A stretch of DNA of 64,000 nucleotides from Candidatus Spechtbacteria bacterium RIFCSPLOWO2_12_FULL_38_22 (lineage in GTDB: Bacteria; Patescibacteriota; Minisyncoccia; Spechtbacterales; 2-12-FULL-38-22). The stretch spans positions 7,371 to 71,370 of the forward strand of contig MHOK01000005.1 of assembly GCA_001820055.1 (NCBI GenBank). Direction: 5' to 3'. A model generated the notes under the pieces. It searched no databases. It was given only the letters and a program-made list of their open reading frames with translations, and was not told the origin of the DNA. Made by a program: the position numbers and the translations under genes. Shown here one piece after another: positions 2,520 to 60,292 of this stretch (the first letter of the stretch is position 1; the number at the start of each line of letters is the position of its first letter).

Positions 2520-3545
2520 TTATTTTACATTAACGGCCTCTAGCAATTCAAATACTTTCTCATTTCTTATTATACCACGAATATGAACTCGTAACGCATC
2601 TGGATCAATTTGTTTTTCAGCTTCTTTAGAACTACCAAACTGTATTAAATACCTGTTTGCCTCATCTTCCACCTCTTTCTCGTCAGGAACAAAACCTTCT
2701 TTATCTGCTATTAGGCGTAGCAACAAAGAATTAACAGTTCTCTGATTTGCTTTGTCTCTCCACCCGTCTCTAACCTCTTTTAAGTTCTGCTTCGCGTTTT
2801 CTAAATATTTATCCAGCGTCATGTCCATTGACGCAATCTGCTGGCTTAGTTCGTCCTGCATTTTATCTAGCTCTTGCTCTATTAAACTATCTGGCAATTT
2901 AACTTTTATTTTATTTCCTACAGCCTCCAATATTAATAATCTAAGTTTTTGTCTCTCTTGATATTTTTTTTCCTCCATCATGCCCTCCCTCAAGCTTTGT
3001 TTAAGTCCCTCAAGTGTTTTAAATTCTCCTATCTCTTGAGCAAACTTGTCATCTAGCTCTGGTTTTTTGTCCTTATCTTTAACTCTTGAGTTCCTCAACC
3101 ACTCAAGCGCGCTATCTACTTCCTTATCCTCTACCTCCATTTTCACCTTATGTTTGGTCAGTATGTTTTTGGCTATTGCCTTATAATCCGGTAAATCAAT
3201 TTTTGGTAGCAGAGGAACAACAATTCGAAACTCAAAATCGTTTCCGTAAGCTATTTTTAAAATTTTTATATCTGGCCTTCCGATTGGTTCTATGTTGTTT
3301 TTTTCTATTACATAAACATAGTTATCTTGTATGGCTTCCTCTGCGGCCTCCTGAAAAATTACTTCCCTTCCCAAATGATTTTCTACAACATTGCGGGGGA
3401 TATGTCCTTGGCGGAATCCTTTTATTTTTATATCTTTAGATAACCTGTCTACTACCCTGCTAACAAAGCGCTCCATATCGCTTGGAGTAAGCACAATATC
3501 TATTTGTTTTTGTGAATTTTCTAAATCCTTAATTTCAATTTTCAT
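2520..3545 (-). CDS. tig: Trigger factor (short form)
   Basis: 341 aa. N-terminal ribosome-binding signature region IKGFRQGHIPRNVVE (cf. GFRxGxxP). PPIase-like middle. Shorter than canonical ~430 aa. Synteny with clpP. Confidence 0.72.
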   Translation of the reverse strand: MKIEIKDLENSQKQIDIVLTPSDMERFVSRVVDRLSKDIKIKGFRQGHIPRNVVENHLGREVIFQEAAEEAIQDNYVYVIEKNNIEPIGRPDIKILKIAYGNDFEFRIVVPLLPKIDLPDYKAIAKNILTKHKVKMEVEDKEVDSALEWLRNSRVKDKDKKPELDDKFAQEIGEFKTLEGLKQSLREGMMEEKKYQERQKLRLLILEAVGNKIKVKLPDSLIEQELDKMQDELSQQIASMDMTLDKYLENAKQNLKEVRDGWRDKANQRTVNSLLLRLIADKEGFVPDEKEVEDEANRYLIQFGSSKEAEKQIDPDALRVHIRGIIRNEKVFELLEAVNVK

Positions 3546-5452
3546 ATAAGAAATATAACCAAGAATACAGAAAACACAGCTATAGATAGTATGCTAACCA
3601 TCAAAGTTCCCACGTAAGAATAACTATCTCCAATACCGACCATGTTGTCTGAGTCTAAAATTCTATTTATTATTTTTGCAAATTTATCTGGTGATTTATT
3701 TTTTAGAGCATTAACCACCTTGTCTTCGCTGTCAAAGATTATATGCATAGCTAAAAATGTTCCAAGAATAATACTACCCACGACAAGTCCGCCCAAAGCT
3801 TCGGCTCCAAACAACAAGCTGACAACTAGGGGAACCAAAATGATAATGGACAACAACAAAATACTTTCTCTAAATACAGAGGACGCAATCATGCCGACAA
3901 AAGCGTTGTGATCTGGGTTTATGGTTCTTCCGGCCTTGCCCCTTAATTCCTTTAGCTGTTTTGACAAATAACCCACCAGCCTTAAGCGTATCTTTTGAGG
4001 AAAATGATACGTAAAGTACAGAATCCAGTAAATAAGCGAGCCTCCTAAAAACAAGCTTGCTAGTACGGTTGGGTTGTCTAAGGCAAAATCAAGATGCGTT
4101 GCCTTGCTTGTTATTTCCTGTTTATACAGAAAAAACATAATTATGCTAGCTAATACTGACGCAAACCAAGTATATACGTTAACTCCAACTCTAAAAATTC
4201 TGCTTATAAAATGAAGTTTATCTATGGTATTTATACTCTCTTGCGGAAGTTCTGTTATTTTAGAAAAACTACGAGCGTTGTCTGTAACAGACGAAAATAC
4301 TAGTAGAGAAACGATAGAACTACCCACAGATACAAAGGCCACAACGAATAACGACACCGCATAAATACCCGCCAAAACGTAACTAAACCCTATAAATATT
4401 GGAATAGTGAGCGTAATTGTTGCTATAGACTTTATAACCCCCAAGTTTTTCCATCGCGCAATGTAATAAAAACACGATATAAATCCAGCAGCCCAAAAAC
4501 CAAAAATGGAAGAAAGCCATACAGACACATCAGAATACTGCGGGCTTGCGCTTAAAACCCATGCAAGAAGCGGAAATAAAATTACAGATGCAACTAGCAC
4601 TGTTGCAAATACAGATAAAAATATGTTTTTTAGGATATTAGTAGTAGTTCCAGCTCTTACCAACTTGACTCCGATGAAAGATGAAAATAGCCCCACCGCT
4701 GCTATTAAAGAAGGTAAAATCGTGTCCCCCAATACAGAAGACCCAATGATGATAGCTCCTGTTATGCTTATGGTGAATATCCCAAATATGATTGTCGGTA
4801 GTCCAATGCCGTCCTCTATATCATACCCAACCAAAGATGCCACAATTTGTGGATCTCTAGATTCTTTTTCTGTCTTCTTTCTTCCGGAATCTATAAAAAA
4901 CTTCTTATCTGTCAACACCGTCTGCGTATAGCTTGCAATACCTATTCTGGAAAAAGCCATAACAAGTGTAGCGCCCAATGTCATAGCTACTAAATCTTCT
5001 GCACTGGGGTCTAGTGTTATTCTGTATAGAGAAATTATAAAAAGCGAAAGTCCCAATATAAAAACGCTAAAGATATTTCCGCCTTCCAAAATAGACCTAA
5101 AGGACTCGATTAATCCTTTATACGAATTATCTGCAATTTTAGAGTTAAGTTTGTTCAAAAACAAAAGAGATATATATGCCACCAATCCCGCGCCAACAAC
5201 TCCTATGATAAACCCCAGCGCCGTACTAAAATCTAAAAACGGTACGCTTAAAATAACTATCAATATAATCAAAGCAAATACACCTATGATTCTGTATAGT
5301 CTGAATAAATACACAAAAGATATTTTTTGAACCTTACTCGCCAGAGCAGCTATTTCAATATTTCCCAACTTTCCAAAAAAATGCTTCTGACTGGTATAAA
5401 TAGAGTATATAAGCGCAAGAAAGGATATTGTAAGAGGCACAAGAAAAAACAT
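3542..5452 (-). CDS. Polytopic integral membrane protein, possibly a degenerate H+-pyrophosphatase-like protein
   Basis: 636 aa with more than 12 predicted TM helices. Segment RDPQIVASLVGYDIEDGIGLPTIIFG loosely resembles the H+-PPase [29 protein letters not shown] motif but lacks the Asp-rich catalytic residues. Confidence 0.3.
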   Translation of the reverse strand: MFFLVPLTISFLALIYSIYTSQKHFFGKLGNIEIAALASKVQKISFVYLFRLYRIIGVFALIILIVILSVPFLDFSTALGFIIGVVGAGLVAYISLLFLNKLNSKIADNSYKGLIESFRSILEGGNIFSVFILGLSLFIISLYRITLDPSAEDLVAMTLGATLVMAFSRIGIASYTQTVLTDKKFFIDSGRKKTEKESRDPQIVASLVGYDIEDGIGLPTIIFGIFTISITGAIIIGSSVLGDTILPSLIAAVGLFSSFIGVKLVRAGTTTNILKNIFLSVFATVLVASVILFPLLAWVLSASPQYSDVSVWLSSIFGFWAAGFISCFYYIARWKNLGVIKSIATITLTIPIFIGFSYVLAGIYAVSLFVVAFVSVGSSIVSLLVFSSVTDNARSFSKITELPQESINTIDKLHFISRIFRVGVNVYTWFASVLASIIMFFLYKQEITSKATHLDFALDNPTVLASLFLGGSLIYWILYFTYHFPQKIRLRLVGYLSKQLKELRGKAGRTINPDHNAFVGMIASSVFRESILLLSIIILVPLVVSLLFGAEALGGLVVGSIILGTFLAMHIIFDSEDKVVNALKNKSPDKFAKIINRILDSDNMVGIGDSYSYVGTLMVSILSIAVFSVFLVIFLI

Positions 5453-6939: not shown

Positions 6940-7120
6940 ATATAACAATATAACCAGATACAATATAACTATACAACAACATAACTACATAACCGCACAA
7001 TCAAACTACCACACAAGGGGTTTGGTAATCTGGTAATTTAGTAATCTGATGATTTAGTTATTTGGTTATTATAGTAATTTAGTTATCCTGCGATATAGTA
7101 ATCCGGCAATTTAGTAATGT
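6940..7120 (-). repeat. Upstream repeat module (family U), reverse orientation, 5' of nusA
   Basis: Contains GGTAATCTGGTAATTTAGTAATCTG, the reverse complement of CAGATTACTAAATTACCAGATT. Also TATAAC/GGTTAT-rich direct repeats homologous to 37601-37815 and 43635-43695. Confidence 0.5.
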
Positions 7121-7122
7121 GG

Positions 7123-7503
7123 TTATCTGACAGCATTTCTATAATATCTTAATCTTGCAACTTTGTTGGCGTTATTTATCTCCAGCGCCGCAAGGTCTAT
7201 TCTATAATCTGTGTCCTCTGGATAGTTGTTTTTTATTAAATATACCTGTGCGGTTTTTATAACTCTTTGAGCCTTTTTGTAATCAAAATGCTCTTCGGGT
7301 TTAAAATATTCTATGTACTTTGCGTCTAGCGCTTTTACTTCAACAAATACTACTGTGCGTTTATCTTTTGCAATAATATCTATCTCTCCAGTTTTGTATG
7401 AAAAATTTCTGTCAATAATTTTAAACTCTAAATCTTTTTTAAGATATTTAACTACCAAATCCTCTCCCAAGTTTCCAGTTTTTATATTATTGTGTTTAAC
7501 CAT
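7123..7503 (-). CDS. yraN: YraN/UPF0102 family endonuclease
   Basis: GEDLVVKYLKK...GEIDIIAKDKRTVVFVEVKA matches the UPF0102 (YraN) signature. Likely true start is the internal Met (MVKHNN). The ORF track extends to 7563. Confidence 0.6.
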   Translation of the reverse strand: MVKHNNIKTGNLGEDLVVKYLKKDLEFKIIDRNFSYKTGEIDIIAKDKRTVVFVEVKALDAKYIEYFKPEEHFDYKKAQRVIKTAQVYLIKNNYPEDTDYRIDLAALEINNANKVARLRYYRNAVR

Positions 7504-8757: not shown

Positions 8758-8803
8758 AAATAAACGTTTCAATCCGCCAGCTGGCGGATTGAAACGTTTA
8801 TTT
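8758..8803. terminator. 46-bp perfect palindromic hairpin (family H copy 1)
   Basis: AAATAAACGTTTCAATCCGCCAG|CTGGCGGATTGAAACGTTTATTT. Same arms as the hairpin at 50407-50456. Confidence 0.6.
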
Positions 8804-8842
8804 GTTGATAAATCAAACAATTTGTGGCATTATAAGTTAACA

Positions 8843-10132: not shown

Positions 10133-10138
10133 CACAGA

Positions 10139-10201
10139 CTAAAAAGATTTCATCCACTATAGGGTTGCCTGGCAGCCCTATAGTGGATGAAATCTTTTTA
10201 G
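10139..10201. terminator. Long perfect hairpin between convergent genes
   Basis: CTAAAAAGATTTCATCCACTATAGGG-loop-CCCTATAGTGGATGAAATCTTTTTAG, stem ~26 bp. Confidence 0.6.
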
Positions 10202-10239
10202 TAGATAGCTATTCTATAGGAGGGGCAAACTAATAAACT

Positions 10240-15551: not shown

Positions 15552-15633
15552 TTGTGCTCCCGTCTACTCACAAGAACTAAACATAAAATACATAAAAAAA
15601 GAGCCCTAGTCAATGGGCCTTGGGACGTAAAAT

Positions 15634-15718
15634 AAAATAGTACAATTTATTCCGTCGTAAGCCTGCCTGCGGTAGGCAGGCGGGAACGAAGTGGCAGCGT
15701 GGAATAAATTGTGCTATT
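15634..15718. repeat. Inverted-repeat hairpin element, family A copy 2
   Basis: AAAATAGTACAATTTATTCCGTCGTAAGCCTGCCTGCGGTAGGCAGGCGGGAACGAAGTGGCAGCGTGGAATAAATTGT. Confidence 0.6.
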
Positions 15719-15728
15719 TGTTAAAAAA

Positions 15729-15856
15729 AGAGTTTGTATAATTTATTTCGTCGTAAGCCTGCCTACCGCAGGCAGGCGGGAATGAGCGTAGCGAATGGCA
15801 GCGTGAAATAAATTGTACAAACTCTTTTTTTAATAAACTGTACTATTTTTTATTTT
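15729..15856. repeat. Inverted-repeat hairpin element, family A copy 3, with conserved 25-nt tail
   Basis: Tandem to copy 2. Inner palindrome CCTGCCTACCGCAGGCAGGC. Tail AATAAACTGTACTATTTTTTATTTT is also present after copies 1 and 4. Confidence 0.6.
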
Positions 15857-19974: not shown

Positions 19975-20015
19975 AAAATATTAGTAACCAGCAACAAGTA
20001 ACTTGTAACAAGTAA

Positions 20016-20390
20016 TTATTTTTGTTTTTCAATAGACCTTATTAAACCATTAATTAACTTCTCTACATCCTTGCTTGTTTCGCCTAACTGCTGACAGCTC
20101 TCTTTGTCTATTAATTTTAAATCTCTGGCCAAAAGTAGGAAATTCTGCACTTCTGCCACAGAACCCCTTGCTTGATAATAAAATCTTATTTTGTCGTTGT
20201 AGTGATATCGCGCAAATCCCTCTGCCATATTGGCTGTAACTGAACTTGAGGCTCTCCTCAACTGACTAGTTATCCCAAACACTTCTTCTTTGGGAAACCT
20301 TTCTGTAATTTGGTAAATTTTTATGATCAACTGGTGACCCTTTTTCCAAGCGCCCAAGTCATAAAAATTTTTAATGGAATTTTCGTTCAT
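20016..20390 (-). CDS. Four-helix-bundle protein (TIGR02436-type, '23S rRNA intervening-sequence protein' family)
   Basis: 124 aa. N-terminal region (FYDLGAWKKGHQLIIKIYQITERFPKEE...SQLRRASSSVTANMAEGF) matches this family. Confidence 0.7.
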   Translation of the reverse strand: MNENSIKNFYDLGAWKKGHQLIIKIYQITERFPKEEVFGITSQLRRASSSVTANMAEGFARYHYNDKIRFYYQARGSVAEVQNFLLLARDLKLIDKESCQQLGETSKDVEKLINGLIRSIEKQK

Positions 20391-20426: not shown

Positions 20427-21875
20427 TTATTTCAAATAGTATTTCTCCTTTATATCCTGATTAACTTTTTCTTCCAGTTTTTCTTGTTTCTTTATGGCTT
20501 CTTTTTTTAACTTTTCAAGCTCTTTATCGCTCATTTTACCCAGTTCTCCTGTTCGTTTTTTTAAATAAGTCTTTTTATTTTTTAATGGATCGTCTAACAC
20601 CTCGTCTAAAAGAACGTTTAATACCTGTCCCACTTTTGGACTAGGCTTAATATCTAAAAATTTCATTACCTCGTTGCCGGAAACTTTCAACATGCCAACA
20701 GAGATAGCGTCCTTTTGTACTTTATCTATCATGTAGCGAAGATGACGAAGGCGATATGGTTCGGGCTTTGGAACGCCAGAACCCATTCTGTCGCAAATCC
20801 TTACTTTAATCAAGTCGTCCATATTTTGAGAACCAACCTTCGCGATAAGACGACGGACAGAGCTTTCCGTAACTTCGTCCACATTATAGTAAAACAGGTG
20901 ATAGCGCACTAAAGATACCACCCGTTCAATAAATTCACGTGAAAAATTAAGTCGCTCAAGGGCTTTACGCGTTATGCGCGCGCCCACAACTTCGTGGCCG
21001 TAAAAGGTTGCCTCTTCTCCTTCGCCTCTCTTTGTTTGGGGTTTACCAACATCGTGAAATAATGCGGCAAAACGCACGTGCGTAGGGTAGTCGTGTTCTG
21101 CGGCCCATTTAAGAGATAGGGCATTATGTTCAAAAACAGTATATATATGATGTTTTGATTGGTCTACCCCAACACCTTTTGCAATCTCCAGTAAAACAAG
21201 CTCTAGGAGCCCCGTATCTTTCATAAACAAAAGTCCATTATAGGCGCTTTTCGCGTTTATTAGTTTCACCAGTTCGTCTCTTACCCTTTCGCTGGCTATC
21301 AGTTTTATTAAGTGCGCATTTTTTATAATAGCCTTAAATGTCTCCTCATCAATTGTAAAATTTAACTGCGCGGCAAAACGCACACCTCTCATAAGGCGAA
21401 GTGCGTCTTCGTTAAATCTCTCATGCGGATCTCCCACCGCTTTTATAAATCCCTCTTTTAGATCTTTTTTGCCGTTAAACAAGTCAACAAGTTTGCCATC
21501 AGCGCTCATGGCAAGAGCGTTAATGGTAAAATCTCTGCGAGCTAAGTCCTTTTCAAGCGACTCTGTAAACTTAACCTCATCTGGATGGCGTTTATCAGAA
21601 TACTTTGCTTCAACTCTATAAGTTGTAACTTCTATAACCTTAAGTATTTCGTCTTTAGAATCTGTTTTCACCCCGACTGTTCCAAATGTGTTTTCGTAAA
21701 AACTATCTGGAAACAGTTTTTGAATAGCTTGAGTTTTAGCATTGGTCGTGATATCCCAGTCCTTGGGTTTTTGTTCTAATAAAATATCGCGCACGCATCC
21801 GCCTACAACATAAGCCTCAAAACCTGCTTTTTCTAATGTCTTTAATACTTTTTCTACCTCTTTTGGTATTTTCAT
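20427..21875 (-). CDS. cca: CCA-adding tRNA nucleotidyltransferase with HD domain
   Basis: PolyA-polymerase head GGCVRD. HD domain (HDVGK). 482 aa. Confidence 0.85.
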   Translation of the reverse strand: MKIPKEVEKVLKTLEKAGFEAYVVGGCVRDILLEQKPKDWDITTNAKTQAIQKLFPDSFYENTFGTVGVKTDSKDEILKVIEVTTYRVEAKYSDKRHPDEVKFTESLEKDLARRDFTINALAMSADGKLVDLFNGKKDLKEGFIKAVGDPHERFNEDALRLMRGVRFAAQLNFTIDEETFKAIIKNAHLIKLIASERVRDELVKLINAKSAYNGLLFMKDTGLLELVLLEIAKGVGVDQSKHHIYTVFEHNALSLKWAAEHDYPTHVRFAALFHDVGKPQTKRGEGEEATFYGHEVVGARITRKALERLNFSREFIERVVSLVRYHLFYYNVDEVTESSVRRLIAKVGSQNMDDLIKVRICDRMGSGVPKPEPYRLRHLRYMIDKVQKDAISVGMLKVSGNEVMKFLDIKPSPKVGQVLNVLLDEVLDDPLKNKKTYLKKRTGELGKMSDKELEKLKKEAIKKQEKLEEKVNQDIKEKYYLK

Positions 21876-21907: not shown

Positions 21908-21956
21908 AAACTTCCTGGGGGTTGAATCTCCTGGGGGTTGAACCCCCAGGAGATTG
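21908..21956. repeat. REP palindromes (1.5 copies) downstream of the RAYT-type transposase gene
   Basis: CTTCCTGGGGGTTGAA then perfect palindrome TCTCCTGGGGGTTGAACCCCCAGGAGA. Confidence 0.65.
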
Positions 21957-21990
21957 CCGCTTATTACTTCCGACTTCTAATTTCCTGTTG

Positions 21991-22019
21991 ATTTCCCGGG
22001 GGTTCAACCCCTGGGAAAT
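21991..22019. repeat. REP palindrome
   Basis: ATTTCCCGGGGGTTCAACCCCTGGGAAAT, immediately 3' of the transposase stop. Confidence 0.65.
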
Positions 22020-22024
22020 GTGCA

Positions 22025-22750
22025 TTAAAACGTATCCGCTCTAATAATATTATTCTCCGCTTTAAAATTTATCCAGTCTTCAACAATTCTGCGACAACTA
22101 CTTTCTCCTCCAAATAAGTTTAAATAAAAATCTCTTTCTGTAACTAGAGGGAAATTAGAATTTCCAATATAATCACAATAACTAGACCACCTATACCTTT
22201 CCAAAAAATTTAGTGCGTTGTTCTTGTTTTTAACTATTAATTCTTTCCAATCCGACTCCACTAGTTCTACAGGATTTGTATGAACATAGCTAAATATAAC
22301 CATTAATTGTTCGTTAGTCTTAATTTTAACACTTCTATATCTACCCTGAAATATGCCACCCATACCACTCCTATTGTACTTCTCATTAAAATATCCCGTA
22401 TATCCATTGCCTAATTTCTTCATAAATAGAGATATACCGCCATCGTTTATCTCTCTCAAAATTAAATGAAAATGATTGCGCATAAGAACAAGGGCTAAAA
22501 TAGCAACTATCGGCTTACGTTGTTTAACACTTCTAGCCTCTAACTTCTTAGGGGTTGAACCCCCAGGAAGTCGTCTTTCGTCATTCTTTAAGTCTCCTAT
22601 AACAATAAGCTCCTTGTTATTAAACCAATATAATGATTCAATAAAGCGCAAATAATCTTTATCGTCTAAAAATATATCGCGTTTATCATATCCGCGATTA
22701 TATACATGGTATATTCCATTTATTTCAAAATCTCTAGGTGGTGAAGCCAT
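22025..22750 (-). mobile_element. IS200/IS605-like Y1 HUH transposase, REP-associated (RAYT)
   Basis: 241 aa. YHVYNRGYDKRDIF N-terminal motif. HUH motif NHFHLIL. Catalytic Tyr region YVHTNPV. Flanked on both sides by REP palindromes. One REP-like copy at 22546-22575 lies in-frame inside the CDS (RLPGGSTPKKL). Confidence 0.65.
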
Positions 22751-22765
22751 AAAGTCAACCTATCA

Positions 22766-22798
22766 TACAATTCCTGGGGGTTCAACCCCCAGGAATTG
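22766..22798. repeat. REP palindrome upstream of the RAYT-type transposase gene
   Basis: Perfect palindrome ACAATTCCTGGGGGTTCAACCCCCAGGAATTGT. Confidence 0.65.
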
Positions 22799-22874
22799 TA
22801 AATTAGCCACCGAGTCCGCCGAAAGGGCGAATAAACTCCGCGAGGCGAACCAAAACTCTTTGACTTTTCCTACG

Positions 22875-22951
22875 TGGTGCTCCCGGGAGGACTCGAACCT
22901 CCAACCTTCTGGTCCGAAGCCAGACACTCTATCCGATTGAGCTACAGGAGC
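22875..22951 (-). tRNA. tRNA-Arg (anticodon TCG), CCA encoded
   Basis: Manual cloverleaf fold. Acceptor GCTCCTG/CGGGAGC. Anticodon stem TCTGG/CCAGA with loop CTTCGGA (UCG). T-arm GGAGG-TTCGAGT-CCTCC. 3' ACCA. Confidence 0.8.
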
Positions 22952-23211
22952 TATACTTTGCTCAGAAAATATTCTGAGCCACGGAAGAACTAAAAACAAA
23001 TTCAAGTTACTACTTGCTTGCCGTCCGAAGTCTTGACGAAGGATGGCCCTTCCGAAGCCCACAATGAAATAAGGGGCGTAGGAGGGAGCTACAGGAGCAT
23101 ATCGTTATTTATACCACACGCTATGCTAAAATTCAATTGAGAAGTTGACTTTAATTTAAAATTATGTTAGGATTGAGACAGCGTACGAAATCCGTACAAG
23201 GGAGGTGAAAA

Positions 23212-36006: not shown

Positions 36007-36079
36007 AAAACAGTCTTTATTCAATGTCGTTTACTTGACGCACAACATAAGTACATACAAGAAAATAAAACAAAAACAA

Positions 36080-36190
36080 AAGAGTCTGTATAATTTTATT
36101 TCGTCGTAAGTGGGAATGAGCGTAGCGAATGGCAGCGTGAAATAAAATTATACAGACTCTTTTGTTAATAAACTGTACTGTTTTTTATTT
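36080..36190. repeat. Inverted-repeat hairpin element, family A copy 4 (lacks the inner palindrome module)
   Basis: AGAGTCTGTATAATTTTATTTCGTCGTAAG-TGGGAATGAGCGTAGCGAATGGCAGCGTGAAATAAAATTATACAGACTCT plus the AATAAACTGTACTGTTTTTTATTTTTAC tail. Confidence 0.6.
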
Positions 36191-36205
36191 TTACTATTTT
36201 TAAGT

Positions 36206-37363: not shown

Positions 37364-37600
37364 TTTATTGACAGACGAAGATGTGGTTTTTAATTTCTCG
37401 ATAATATATTTCTATAGCTTAAGGGTTGAATAAATACACCATTCAGCTACAATCTAAGAGTATTTAATATATAATCTGCGTAATCAAAAATGCTGCTTTC
37501 GCAGCACTCCTATAGTATTCAGCATAGCAGTTACACCCTATTTGTCAATAGGTCTAGGTGGAAAAAGTGTTAATATCGCATAGTGACTGTATTACTATAT

Positions 37601-37815
37601 TACTAGATTACAAAATTACTAAATTACCAGATTACAGAAACGCCGGATTACTAGATTACAAAATTACTAAATTACCAGATTATTTACATGACCCTGCGGT
37701 TGTACGGTTATATAGTCATCTTATTATGTAGTTATATAGCCGTCTTGTTACATGGTTATATGGTTATGTAGTTATTGTTATATAGTTATATAGTCATCTT
37801 GTTATTAGTTATCTT
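37601..37815 (+). repeat. Upstream repeat module (family U), 5' of pcrA
   Basis: Two tandem copies of ATTACTAGATTACAAAATTACTAAATTACCAGATTA, followed by TTATATAGTCATCTTRTTAT direct repeats. Confidence 0.5.
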
Positions 37816-43611: not shown

Positions 43612-43634
43612 CGCCTACTGATAAACCCGTACAC

Positions 43635-43695
43635 TATTACTAGATTGCAGAAGTACCAAATTACTAGATTACAAAATTACTAAATTACCAGATTT
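43635..43695 (+). repeat. Upstream repeat module (family U), 5' of the VirB3-like gene
   Basis: ATTACTAGATTGCAGAAGTACCAAATTACTAGATTACAAAATTACTAAATTACCAGATTTG. Confidence 0.5.
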
Positions 43696-43717
43696 GTTAT
43701 CTTGTTATTTAATTATA

Positions 43718-50394: not shown

Positions 50395-50406
50395 GTGGGC
50401 CCACAA

Positions 50407-50456
50407 ATCAACAAATAAACGTTTCAAACCTGGTTTGAAACGTTTATTTGTTGATT
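50407..50456. terminator. Palindromic hairpin (family H copy 2) between convergent genes
   Basis: AATCAACAAATAAACGTTTCAAACC-T-GGTTTGAAACGTTTATTTGTTGATT. Shares AAATAAACGTTTCAA arms with 8758-8803. Confidence 0.6.
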
Positions 50457-50457
50457 T

Positions 50458-59098: not shown

Positions 59099-60292
59099 AT
59101 GCGTATGGATATTAATTTTACACAAAGAGACATTTTAGAAAGGGGGGTGGAAGAAATTATAGAGATTACAAGCTTAAGAAAAAAGTTAAAATCTGGCAGG
59201 AAATTGCGGGTTAAATTAGGCATAGATCCAAATGCGCCGGACATACACTTGGGTCACACGGCGCCTCTTTGGAAGCTTCGACAGTTCCAAGAATTAGGAC
59301 ACAAAGCAGTGCTTATAATAGGAGATTATACAGCTTCTATAGGAGATCCTTCGGGGAAAGACGAAACACGTCCTAGTTTAACAGAGGCGCAGATTAAAGG
59401 AAACTACAAAACTTATGAAAAACAAGCGTTAAAAATTTTAGACAACAAAACTCTGGAGGTTAGGTATCAAACAGAATGGTATAAAAATTTTAATCTGAAA
59501 GATGTATTAAATTTGTTAAGGAAAGCTTCAGTTGGACGGCTTTTGCAACACGAAACATTTCGCGAACGACTTAAAAAAAAACAACAGTTCGCTGTGCATG
59601 AGATTATATACCCGTTTTTACAGGGATATGATTCTGTTGCCGTAAAAGCAGATGTTGAACTAGGTGCCACGGAACAAAAGTTTAATTTGTTGATGGGAAG
59701 GGAACTGCAAAAAGCATATGGACAGGAACAGCAGGATATTATTACGAATCCGTATTTGTTGGGTACGGACGGGAAAGAAAAAATGAGCAAATCGTTGGGT
59801 AATTATATAGCTATACAAGACAAGCCCACGGAAATGTTCGGCAAGGTTATGAGTATACGAGATAGTGAAATTGTGCAGTATTTTGAACTTGTCACACCCG
59901 TACCGTTTAAAAAAGTGCAAGAAATAAAAAAATTAAAAATAACCGGAAAAACCGCACGGGACTTAAAAGTACAACTTGCCGGAGTTATAACGGAGTTATA
60001 TTGGGGCAAGGAAGAGGCAGAGAAAGCGCAGGAAAGATTTGAAACACAATTCCAAAAAAGGGGAGTGTCAAAAGGACTAAGCGTGGTGCGTGTTTCTGGG
60101 TCTGATAGCACAATCATCACAATACTAGTTGATGCTGGATTTGTGTCTTCTAAAAACGAGGCTAGAAGGTTAGTAGAACAAGGGGCTGTATATTTTGATA
60201 ATGAGAGAATGGCAGAGTATAACGATCCTATTCCTAAACGCTCTTTTATACTTAAGGCAGGAAGAAAGATGGCAAAAATAGTGCCAAAATAA
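59099..60292 (+). CDS. tyrS: Tyrosine--tRNA ligase
   Basis: Class I HIGH variant (HLGHTAP) and KMSKS (KMSKSLGN). C-terminal S4-like domain. Confidence 0.9.
   Translation: MRMDINFTQRDILERGVEEIIEITSLRKKLKSGRKLRVKLGIDPNAPDIHLGHTAPLWKLRQFQELGHKAVLIIGDYTASIGDPSGKDETRPSLTEAQIKGNYKTYEKQALKILDNKTLEVRYQTEWYKNFNLKDVLNLLRKASVGRLLQHETFRERLKKKQQFAVHEIIYPFLQGYDSVAVKADVELGATEQKFNLLMGRELQKAYGQEQQDIITNPYLLGTDGKEKMSKSLGNYIAIQDKPTEMFGKVMSIRDSEIVQYFELVTPVPFKKVQEIKKLKITGKTARDLKVQLAGVITELYWGKEEAEKAQERFETQFQKRGVSKGLSVVRVSGSDSTIITILVDAGFVSSKNEARRLVEQGAVYFDNERMAEYNDPIPKRSFILKAGRKMAKIVPK

Follow-up and report, generated by a model that had tools for sequence, protein, structure and literature searches.

The TnpA_Y1 enzymes of subclass 2.1, which are equated with the TIRYTs of Di Nocera et al. 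2013 (PMC3733652) and with Bertels' Group 1 of the RAYTs, the tyrosine transposases associated with repetitive extragenic palindromes (REPs) (Quentin et al. 2018, PMC6006769), are characterized by the motifs NH[YF]H, FQ and Y[IV]HxNP, a length of ~238 aa and a tail with 'SS' (PMC6006769, Table 1), and have been reported either without hairpin or REP-like sequences (PMC6006769) or with long terminal inverted repeats (PMC3733652). In-frame REPs inside tnpA_REP genes are known from subclass 2.4 (Bertels Group 4), where they are tolerated (PMC6006769, section 12, Fig. S10), lie between the HuH and Tyr motifs, carry GTAG feet and occur in Cyanobacteria and Bacteroidetes (PMC6006769). Here we describe a cassette of the uncultured groundwater organism Candidatus Spechtbacteria bacterium RIFCSPLOWO2_12_FULL_38_22, located in a 64,000-nt stretch of its DNA (the window, to whose coordinates all positions refer), in which a Y1 HUH/tyrosine nuclease gene stands between cognate palindromes and carries a further copy in-frame within its own coding sequence. 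The first-pass annotation of the window had called such an in-frame REP unusual, and unusual it is, but subclass 2.4 provides a precedent (PMC6006769). The novelty lies in a second large clade whose genes contain cognate palindromes, in the new and fixed positions of these, in their clear concerted evolution and in the near absence of dispersed copies; a literature search found no description of these enzymes in Patescibacteria or of the three-site palindrome architecture.

The Y1 cassette of the window

The gene, its catalytic codons and the palindromes (the latter given without strand) are as follows, with the basis of each assignment in brackets.

22025-22750, minus strand: Y1 HUH/tyrosine nuclease gene, 241 aa (open reading frame (ORF), Pfam, AlphaFold, Foldseek)
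22466-22474, minus strand: HUH motif codons H93-F94-H95, in NHFHLIL (read from sequence)
22286-22288, minus strand: catalytic tyrosine codon Y155, in YVHTNPV (read from sequence)
22766-22800: upstream palindrome, 35 nt, perfect 17-bp arms and one central base, ends 15 nt before the ATG (inverted repeat and DNA fold)
~22543-22571: internal in-frame palindrome, two arm mismatches, encodes L61-PGGSTPKK-L70, ~70 nt upstream of the HUH codons (read from sequence, core search, inverted repeat and DNA fold)
21991-22019: proximal downstream palindrome, variant CCCGGGGGTTCAACCCCTGGG, begins 6 nt past the stop codon (inverted repeat and DNA fold)
21925-21955: distal downstream palindrome, 31 nt, perfect 15-bp arms (inverted repeat and DNA fold)
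21910-21926: half copy ACTTCCTGGGGGTTGAA, adjoins the distal palindrome and is 94% complementary to one arm of the internal copy (inverted and direct repeat)

The 241-aa protein had been read in the first-pass annotation as a Y1 transposase, and this is borne out by its motifs, its profile match and its predicted fold. Pfam PF01797 (Y1_Tnp) aligns with residues 82-158 at 27.9 bits against a gathering score of 23, and the NCBIfam equivalog NF047646 (REP_Tyr_transpos) scores 42.6 bits, under its cut-off of 80. In an alignment of 40 homologues N92, H93, Y155, N159 and P160 are invariant and H95 is at least 90% conserved, and the tyrosine motif Y155-VHT-N159-P160 has the class-2 form Y-x-x-x-N-P (criterion from PMC6006769), so that a RAYT-class Y1 HUH enzyme flanked by cognate palindromes, as originally proposed, is supported. 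The AlphaFold model, built on 40 homologues, has a mean confidence (pLDDT) of 87 and a predicted template-modelling score (pTM) of 0.85. Foldseek ranks E. coli TnpA_REP in complex with a REP hairpin (4ER8; E 2.2e-5; target-normalised TM score 0.69) first among the solved structures, ahead of the TnpA structures 2A6M, 2XM3 and 2VJV (IS608, ISDra2), whilst a sequence-profile search of the PDB with the protein gave no match. Residues 62-73 are the sole internal segment of the model with pLDDT <50, and it is this low-confidence loop that the internal palindrome encodes. The description of this region as an insertion N-terminal to the HUH motif holds with respect to the generic family, given that the Pfam and NCBIfam alignments begin only at residues 73-82. 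No family among the PADLOC anti-phage models matched the protein at E <= 0.01, and a role as a defence system was rejected. Of its 754 homologues, those bearing names are mostly Patescibacteria (Nealsonbacteria, Spechtbacteria, Wildermuthbacteria, Paceibacterota), and the window gene is, taken alone, an unremarkable representative of a family very common in Patescibacteria.

The palindrome is of the form ...GGGGTT S AACCCC...; its four full copies and one half copy are all contained in 900 bp of the 64 kb. Its core, GGGGTTSAACCCC, occurs four times in the window, always inside 21934-22789; over 100 shuffles the mean number of matches is 0.05, and four was never reached. The exact 21-mer CCTGGGGGTTSAACCCCCAGG is found in the flanks in two copies only (21931-21951 and 22774-22794). 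The 'at least four' flanking copies of this 21-mer that had been reported thus become three full copies and one half copy: two of them are exact, the third is the variant noted above and the fourth is the half copy. For the internal copy the reported peptide (R60-LPGGSTPKK-L70) stands, and its extent is corrected from 22546-22575 to ~22543-22571, with two arm mismatches. When folded as DNA, the upstream copy attains -17.9 kcal/mol (z -7.3), the distal downstream copy -16.3 kcal/mol (z -4.3), the proximal downstream copy -9.9 kcal/mol (z -2.7) and the internal copy -7.2 kcal/mol (z -1.6). As the weakest of the four hairpins, the internal copy of the window gene is therefore the most decayed; it occupies the position at which relatives carry perfect palindromes. 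The feet of the palindromes read TACAATTCC, ATTTCCC, AATCTCC and ACTTCC, with no GT[AG]G present. A role as terminator or promoter was rejected, as none of the copies in the window is followed by a T-run and promoter- or terminator-like signals around the palindromes are at or under shuffle expectation. At gathering threshold, Rfam finds two tRNAs in the whole window and nothing else; close to the cassette there are only sub-threshold matches, on the downstream palindromes (His_leader, 33 bits against 49, and several miRNA models), which were taken as generic hairpin matches.

In-frame palindromes across the family

A first hint that relatives share this arrangement came from the protein alignment, in which G-[SGQ]-T-like peptides occupy the same loop of many homologues and the end of the ORF repeats the loop peptide in some. 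We searched by script 80 related loci from GTDB genomes together with more from assemblies. Counting the window, 46 loci have a perfect palindrome (stem at least 6, up to 19 bp) at a distance of 40-110 nt upstream of the HUH codons, its centre nearly always a single base. In 42 of the 46 the internal core recurs in the same locus at <=2 mismatches, mainly close before the ORF and 7-50 nt past the stop codon. An unbiased test, in which all perfect hairpins were grouped per locus and the most repeated group was taken, placed these groups at the same three sites, i.e. upstream, pre-HUH and downstream. The same test brought out a second in-frame hot spot, which lies just past the helix of the Tyr motif in 11 loci, three of which also use the pre-HUH spot, and encodes peptides such as GGSTS, GSSTP and RGSTS. 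An in-frame copy with a perfect stem of at least 8 and up to 19 bp is present at either hot spot in 45 of 72 loci. The density of perfect hairpins (stem at least 8) in the family loci is 4.2 per kb in the pre-HUH loop, which is 25-45 aa long in this clade, 2.3 per kb in the post-Tyr loop, 5.5 per kb in the 150 nt upstream of the gene and 5.0 per kb in the 150 nt downstream of it, and 0.14-0.48 per kb in the rest of the gene and the far flanks. Most relatives have the same layout with a different palindrome, so the in-frame copy is a family trait and not a one-off accident; the single unusual insertion of the first-pass annotation gives way to a feature that is found across the clade at specific positions and varies together with the flanks.

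This co-variation is strong. Internal 8-nt arms recur as a palindrome in the flanks of their own locus in 29 of 37 loci, compared with 12 of 1332 cases (0.9%) for the flanks of other loci. The copies of one locus share 10-14 nt per arm and differ farther out, where each is still self-complementary. Change is concerted over nearly all copies of a locus, which read CCTGGGGGTT.AACCCCCAGG in the window, ACCTAGGGGTT.AACCCCTAGGT in relative L088 and TGCCAGCGGTT.AACCGCTGGCA in relative L089, the downstream copy of the latter being a shorter variant. Internal and flanking copies are equally perfect (mean perfect stem 10.8 and 12.3 against 11.3 and 12.0, respectively), and the consensus of the inner arm across the family is GRRGTY. 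An orientation rule based on the central base was tried and no strand logic emerged, the bases of the upstream, internal and downstream copies being 'same' or 'complementary' about equally often. The centre of the palindrome in the pre-HUH loop falls in different codon phases (30, 4 and 7 cases), and the encoded peptides vary widely (GGSTP, EVGL, EVQP, GTVP, GSDP, TGSTG) as the arms change in sequence and stay complementary; it is therefore the symmetry of the nucleic acid that is maintained, and the loop peptide was rejected as the selected feature. Two loci (L006, L091) have lost the internal copy and kept the flanking ones, which indicates that the internal copy is not indispensable.

The regions scanned do not support the palindrome as a dispersed REP of high copy number. 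In addition to its absence from the other ~63 kb of the window, a scan of 185,579 GTDB species-representative genomes with the 21-mer gave no match, the window's own locus included, and the genome of the window is therefore not in that collection. A scan of JGI metagenomes returned two contigs only, one with the same locus (L086) and one with a remote site (L087). Within +/-10 kb in three relatives (L090-L092) the cognate palindrome is found only at the cassette, with no extra copies, and a few relatives have occasional extra copies 0.2-1 kb away. The REP status assumed in the first-pass annotation is accordingly not supported, given the absence from the other ~63 kb, the two JGI contigs, the missing GT[AG]G foot and the NF047646 score under its cut-off, and its own alternative, that of a palindrome absent elsewhere and hence a local feature, nearly applies: the rest of the window has no copy, and only the remote one in L087 stands apart.

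The remote copy (L087 816-846, JGI contig Ga0209343_10000986) comprises 31 nt identical to the upstream copy of the window and sits in-frame in the gene of a FAD-binding oxidase, where it encodes IPGGSTPRN. The oxidase loop that holds it is 4 aa shorter in most homologues, and the two closest homologues (P0242, P0241) have related peptides (SRGSTPGN, SGSPTSRD). The palindrome can thus reach other sites and persist in-frame there. The contig, of 39 kb, is similar in G+C to the window and shares with it a further repeat family. This family consists of a structured repeat of ~90 nt with inverted ends AATAGTACAATTTATTCC...GGAATAAATTGTGCTATT and an inner GC hairpin GCCTGCCTGCGGTAGGCAGGC. In the window it has three sites, 1669-1779, 15629-15723 with 15725-15856 (a tandem pair) and 36075-36191, and it recurs at 90-97% identity on the remote contig (L087 5285-5521); it belongs to no Rfam family at gathering score and could be an element resembling miniature inverted-repeat transposable elements or a small RNA.

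On inspection of motifs, as opposed to a subclass hidden Markov model, the protein fits a class-2 TnpA_Y1 with a subclass 2.1 (TIRYT)-like signature. Its motif set is NHFH, IFQGRY, YVHTNP and RWSSY, with a conserved WSS (W188-S189-S190) in the C-terminal tail, and it shares with subclass 2.1 the NH[YF]H motif, FQ in place of the W motif, Y[IV]HxNP, the 'SS' tail, a length of 241 aa against a median of 238, low copy number and the lack of a dispersed REP family. The family inner arm GRRGTY resembles the GGGGWSAS of the TIRYT terminal inverted repeats, to which GGGGTTSA of the window is not an exact fit. It differs from subclass 2.1 in that the sites are compact self-complementary palindromes, that no core insertion is listed for 2.1 (PMC6006769, Table 1) where the present clade has its long pre-HUH loop, and that the named relatives, mostly Patescibacteria, are not listed in the surveys of PMC6006769 and PMC3733652. 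With subclass 2.4 the locus has in common cognate palindromes that flank the gene and lie inside it with the frame intact, inserts in peripheral loops and symmetric, 'double-foot' REPs. The protein does not, however, match the signature of that subclass (NH[IFV]H, WQ, YIxNNP, ~194 aa, no tail), and the subclass 2.4 inserts are situated between HuH and Tyr, vary in length and sequence and have GT[AG]G feet, whereas the sites here are fixed, before HUH or just after the Tyr helix, without a GTAG foot and nearly confined to the cassette.

The E. coli TnpA_REP/REPtron (subclass 2.2, 4ER8) is similar in its HUH and Tyr fold, being the best structural match, and in the framing of a single-copy gene by cognate palindromes. 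TnpA_REP has 14% identity to the Y1 protein, however, and the motif set differs from that of subclass 2.2; furthermore, in the E. coli system REPs are dispersed in their hundreds and have bulged, imperfect stems with a GTAG foot, and the gene has neither an in-gene copy nor a long pre-HUH loop. Of the traits of a strict RAYT/TnpA_REP system, the locus displays the class-2 Tyr motif, flanking cognate palindromes, low copy number and a stable position, and lacks high-copy intergenic dispersal, the GT[AG]G foot and a score above the NF047646 cut-off. Finally, Rickettsia palindromic elements and intragenic REPs (PMC3733652) are likewise short palindromic repeats that lie in-frame in genes and encode extra surface peptide, and the remote copy in the oxidase gene is of the same kind. 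The Rickettsia elements are longer and numerous and have no known dedicated enzyme, whereas the in-frame palindromes described here are hosted most often by the nuclease gene itself.

Origin and role of the palindromes

The reading that we consider probable, if by no means assured, is that of a class-2 Y1 nuclease cassette with concertedly evolving recognition hairpins, in-frame copies of which are tolerated in permissive loops. The cassette would consist of a single-copy class-2 Y1 HUH/tyrosine nuclease of the RAYT/TIRYT kind and a small, largely local set of its own recognition palindromes, the copies on either side of the gene forming a frame similar to that of a REPtron or TIRtron. If the enzyme works as TnpA_REP and IS608 TnpA do, its substrate would be the palindrome folded back as a hairpin of single-stranded DNA, beside which it would cut and rejoin DNA by means of the HUH-bound metal and Tyr155. 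Further copies may have entered the coding sequence of the enzyme itself, or parts of that sequence may have been converted into them, with survival only of in-frame, stop-free copies in dispensable surface loops. Two places appear permissive in this sense, namely the loop that directly follows the Tyr helix and the disordered one ahead of the HUH strand, the latter being that used in the window. The copies of one locus are kept alike, so that each lineage has its own palindrome at all positions; behind this likeness may lie strand exchange or gene conversion mediated by the enzyme, selection for being recognised by one and the same protein, or a combination of the two. Judging from TnpA_REP and IS608 TnpA, spread and homogenisation would proceed by strand transfer or conversion, preferentially in cis, and we infer tolerance of the internal copy, not a requirement for it. 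What the analysis shows in favour of this reading is the Y1 HUH fold with intact catalytic residues, the framing of the gene by cognate palindromes, the restriction of in-frame copies to two loops, one of them modelled as disordered, the co-variation of the copies over the clade, the presence or absence of the cassette in syntenic relatives and the remote in-frame copy in a host gene.

Several points weigh against this interpretation. Hairpin binding and cleavage in this clade are argued purely by analogy. The palindromes are perfectly symmetric, follow no orientation rule of the central base and show no evident GT[AG]G-like foot, and strand-specific hairpin recognition of the TnpA_REP type is therefore not supported; given the symmetry and the lack of an orientation rule, a dimer may instead recognise duplex DNA. 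Mere tolerance, moreover, predicts that internal copies are more decayed than flanking ones, which on average they are not, and this leans towards either a function or very active homogenisation. The loss of the internal copy from the two loci that keep their flanks also counts here, as does the near absence, in the window and within +/-10 kb in the three relatives scanned, of dispersed copies that the enzyme might mobilise.

The strongest competitor, which we regard as a tentative possibility, is that the in-frame palindrome does not ride along as a passenger but works as a cis element of the cassette, serving autoregulation or the switching off of expression. The hairpins of the 5' leader, the coding region and the 3' trailer would all be targets of the nuclease, or of a host factor, for example RNase III, at the level of DNA or mRNA; the transcribed single strand might be bound or cut, or the segment between two hairpins excised. 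Such a role is consistent with the conservation of two fixed sites across proteins only ~40-50% identical, with internal copies as perfect as the flanking ones (stems of up to 19 bp inside coding sequence), with upstream copies within roughly 100 nt before the inferred gene start and downstream copies 10-50 nt past the stop, with 10-14 nt per arm common to the three sites, and with there being hardly any copies elsewhere for the enzyme to serve. It is, on the other hand, difficult to reconcile with lineages that keep the gene and its flanks without the internal copy (L006, L091), with the internal copy of the window being the weakest hairpin (-7.2 kcal/mol, z -1.6), with promoter and terminator signals not above chance around the sites, and with the same palindrome in-frame in an unrelated FAD-oxidase gene, where autoregulation would be senseless; two alternative positions, sometimes both in use, suit permissive loops at least equally. 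We attach a similarly limited probability to the in-frame palindrome being a required working part, which together with the leader and trailer copies would make up a three-site self-recognition circuit, and for which autoregulation, a DNA on/off switch by hairpin-to-hairpin excision or a cis-loading site are possible roles.

The setting of the cassette bears on a further alternative. Its boundaries in the window are the following.

22875-22951, minus strand: tRNA-Arg(TCG), upstream boundary of the cassette (tRNA detection)
20427-21875, minus strand: CCA-adding enzyme gene, downstream boundary of the cassette (ORF and homology)

The exact Y1 protein is found on 24 ENA/JGI assembly contigs, Rifle-aquifer assemblies among them, and has the same neighbours at all five places shown, the others being collapsed as similar. 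The order is PNPase, NYN, S15, pilin, NUDIX, Y1 gene, CCA enzyme, IVP/Avd-like protein and aminotransferase, and in the window the tRNA-Arg is seen between NUDIX and the Y1 gene. The Y1 gene is present as a single copy in the 64 kb, with no tnpB among the neighbours, and the closest named CCA enzymes are from Candidatus Spechtbacterales (71% identity). In a syntenic relative (L095) whose CCA enzyme is 76% identical, tRNA-Arg and the CCA gene are separated by 28 nt, with no Y1 gene between them, and in another (L097) a GIY-YIG ORF (3563-3826) lies at the junction of tRNA-Arg and CCA enzyme; the cassette is therefore a unit of insertion or deletion and not a fixed host gene. Its ends were not placed by alignment because the 28-nt spacer of L095 is too diverged.

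Other features of the window and of related loci were noted. The tRNA-Arg/CCA-enzyme junction looks like a hot spot. In L095, a spacer of ~490 nt upstream of the tRNA (3410-3900) contains a long inverted repeat as well as a perfect palindrome of 30 nt (ATGAATACGCCAGGCGCCTGGCGTATTCAT) of its own. In the window, the first 13 nt of tRNA-Arg(TCG), GCTCCTGTAGCTC (22939-22951), are repeated at 23086-23098, 147 nt upstream of the tRNA, with a short, hairpin-rich spacer between the two; the arrangement may be the scar of an older rearrangement at the tRNA locus. Directly downstream of the CCA-enzyme gene lies the gene of a 23S_rRNA_IVP/bAvd-like four-helix bundle (~20000-20390; L001 5361-5735), which is kept in L095 and L096. 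Degenerate repeat arrays with a period of 8 nt (ATTACTAG / ATTACAAA / ATTACCAG) occur in intergenic positions and both orientations at 7025-7126, 37567-37700 and 43628-43699, and a similar TAGTTAT-type array is intergenic in L095 (3720-3870). In relative L072 (1284-2990) the whole Y1 cassette forms a tandem duplication of ~925 bp, with the upstream, internal and downstream palindromes each present twice and identical flanks.

An autonomous IS200/IS605-like insertion sequence, with the outer palindromes as the hairpins of its left and right ends and the internal copy as an incidental insertion into itself, appears unlikely to us. The presence or absence of the cassette at the tRNA-Arg/CCA site among syntenic relatives, the tandem duplication of the whole unit in L072, the occurrence of two family members on different contigs in several metagenome-assembled genomes (JAHCSD01, CAYNAD01, JAHJQY01, CAZYIG01) and the varying neighbourhoods between lineages would be in keeping with such an element. 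Its hallmarks are nonetheless missing: the Tyr motif is Y-x-x-x-NP (class 2) and not the Y-x-x-x-Q of IS200 (PMC6006769), the ends are symmetric palindromes in place of distinct left- and right-end hairpins, tnpB is absent from the neighbours, and instead of several near-identical copies there is one in the 64-kb window, with the exact protein in the same context at every place shown among the 24 assemblies.

That the palindromes are ordinary host signals (bidirectional terminators, or the operator of an unrelated dimeric DNA-binding protein) to which the enzyme is unconnected is very improbable, for although symmetric sites suit dimeric binders of double-stranded DNA and other long perfect palindromes with a one-base centre lie between convergent genes at 10138-10202 and 50405-50457, these are unrelated in sequence to the Y1-linked palindrome, which changes with the Y1 lineage at its upstream, internal and downstream sites together, has stems without a following T-run, and would, implausibly, have to act as a terminator at a conserved position within a coding region. 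The two palindromes between convergent genes are near-perfect, with arms of 32 nt and 26 nt; half copies of one such palindrome are found at 8786-8809 and 59671-59694, and the pair may represent bidirectional terminators or orphan REP-like elements.

Implications for the Y1 family of Patescibacteria

The benefit of RAYT-type Y1 nucleases to their hosts is an open question in the RAYT literature (PMC5581495, PMC6006769). In the present family, a large clade of mostly uncultured organisms, the cognate palindrome hardly occurs outside the cassette, within which it stands before, after and in-frame inside the gene and co-evolves at these places. The in-gene REP phenomenon, which had been described as unique to subclass 2.4, is thereby extended to a second subclass and phylum, and proteins with a subclass 2.1 signature do have cognate hairpins. 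For annotation, it follows that the peptides PGGSTP, EVGLP, EVQP and GTVP in these proteins are read-through of the palindrome and not protein motifs. The three-site architecture of the family is under-described and experimentally tractable, as one protein and one palindrome of 25-35 nt constitute a compact, testable system, which could address recognition of hairpin versus duplex, the homogenisation of repeats, and regulation via a site embedded in codons. Should the in-frame palindrome prove to be a required part of the cassette, this would explain how 'domesticated transposases' persist in tiny genomes with almost no dispersed REPs.

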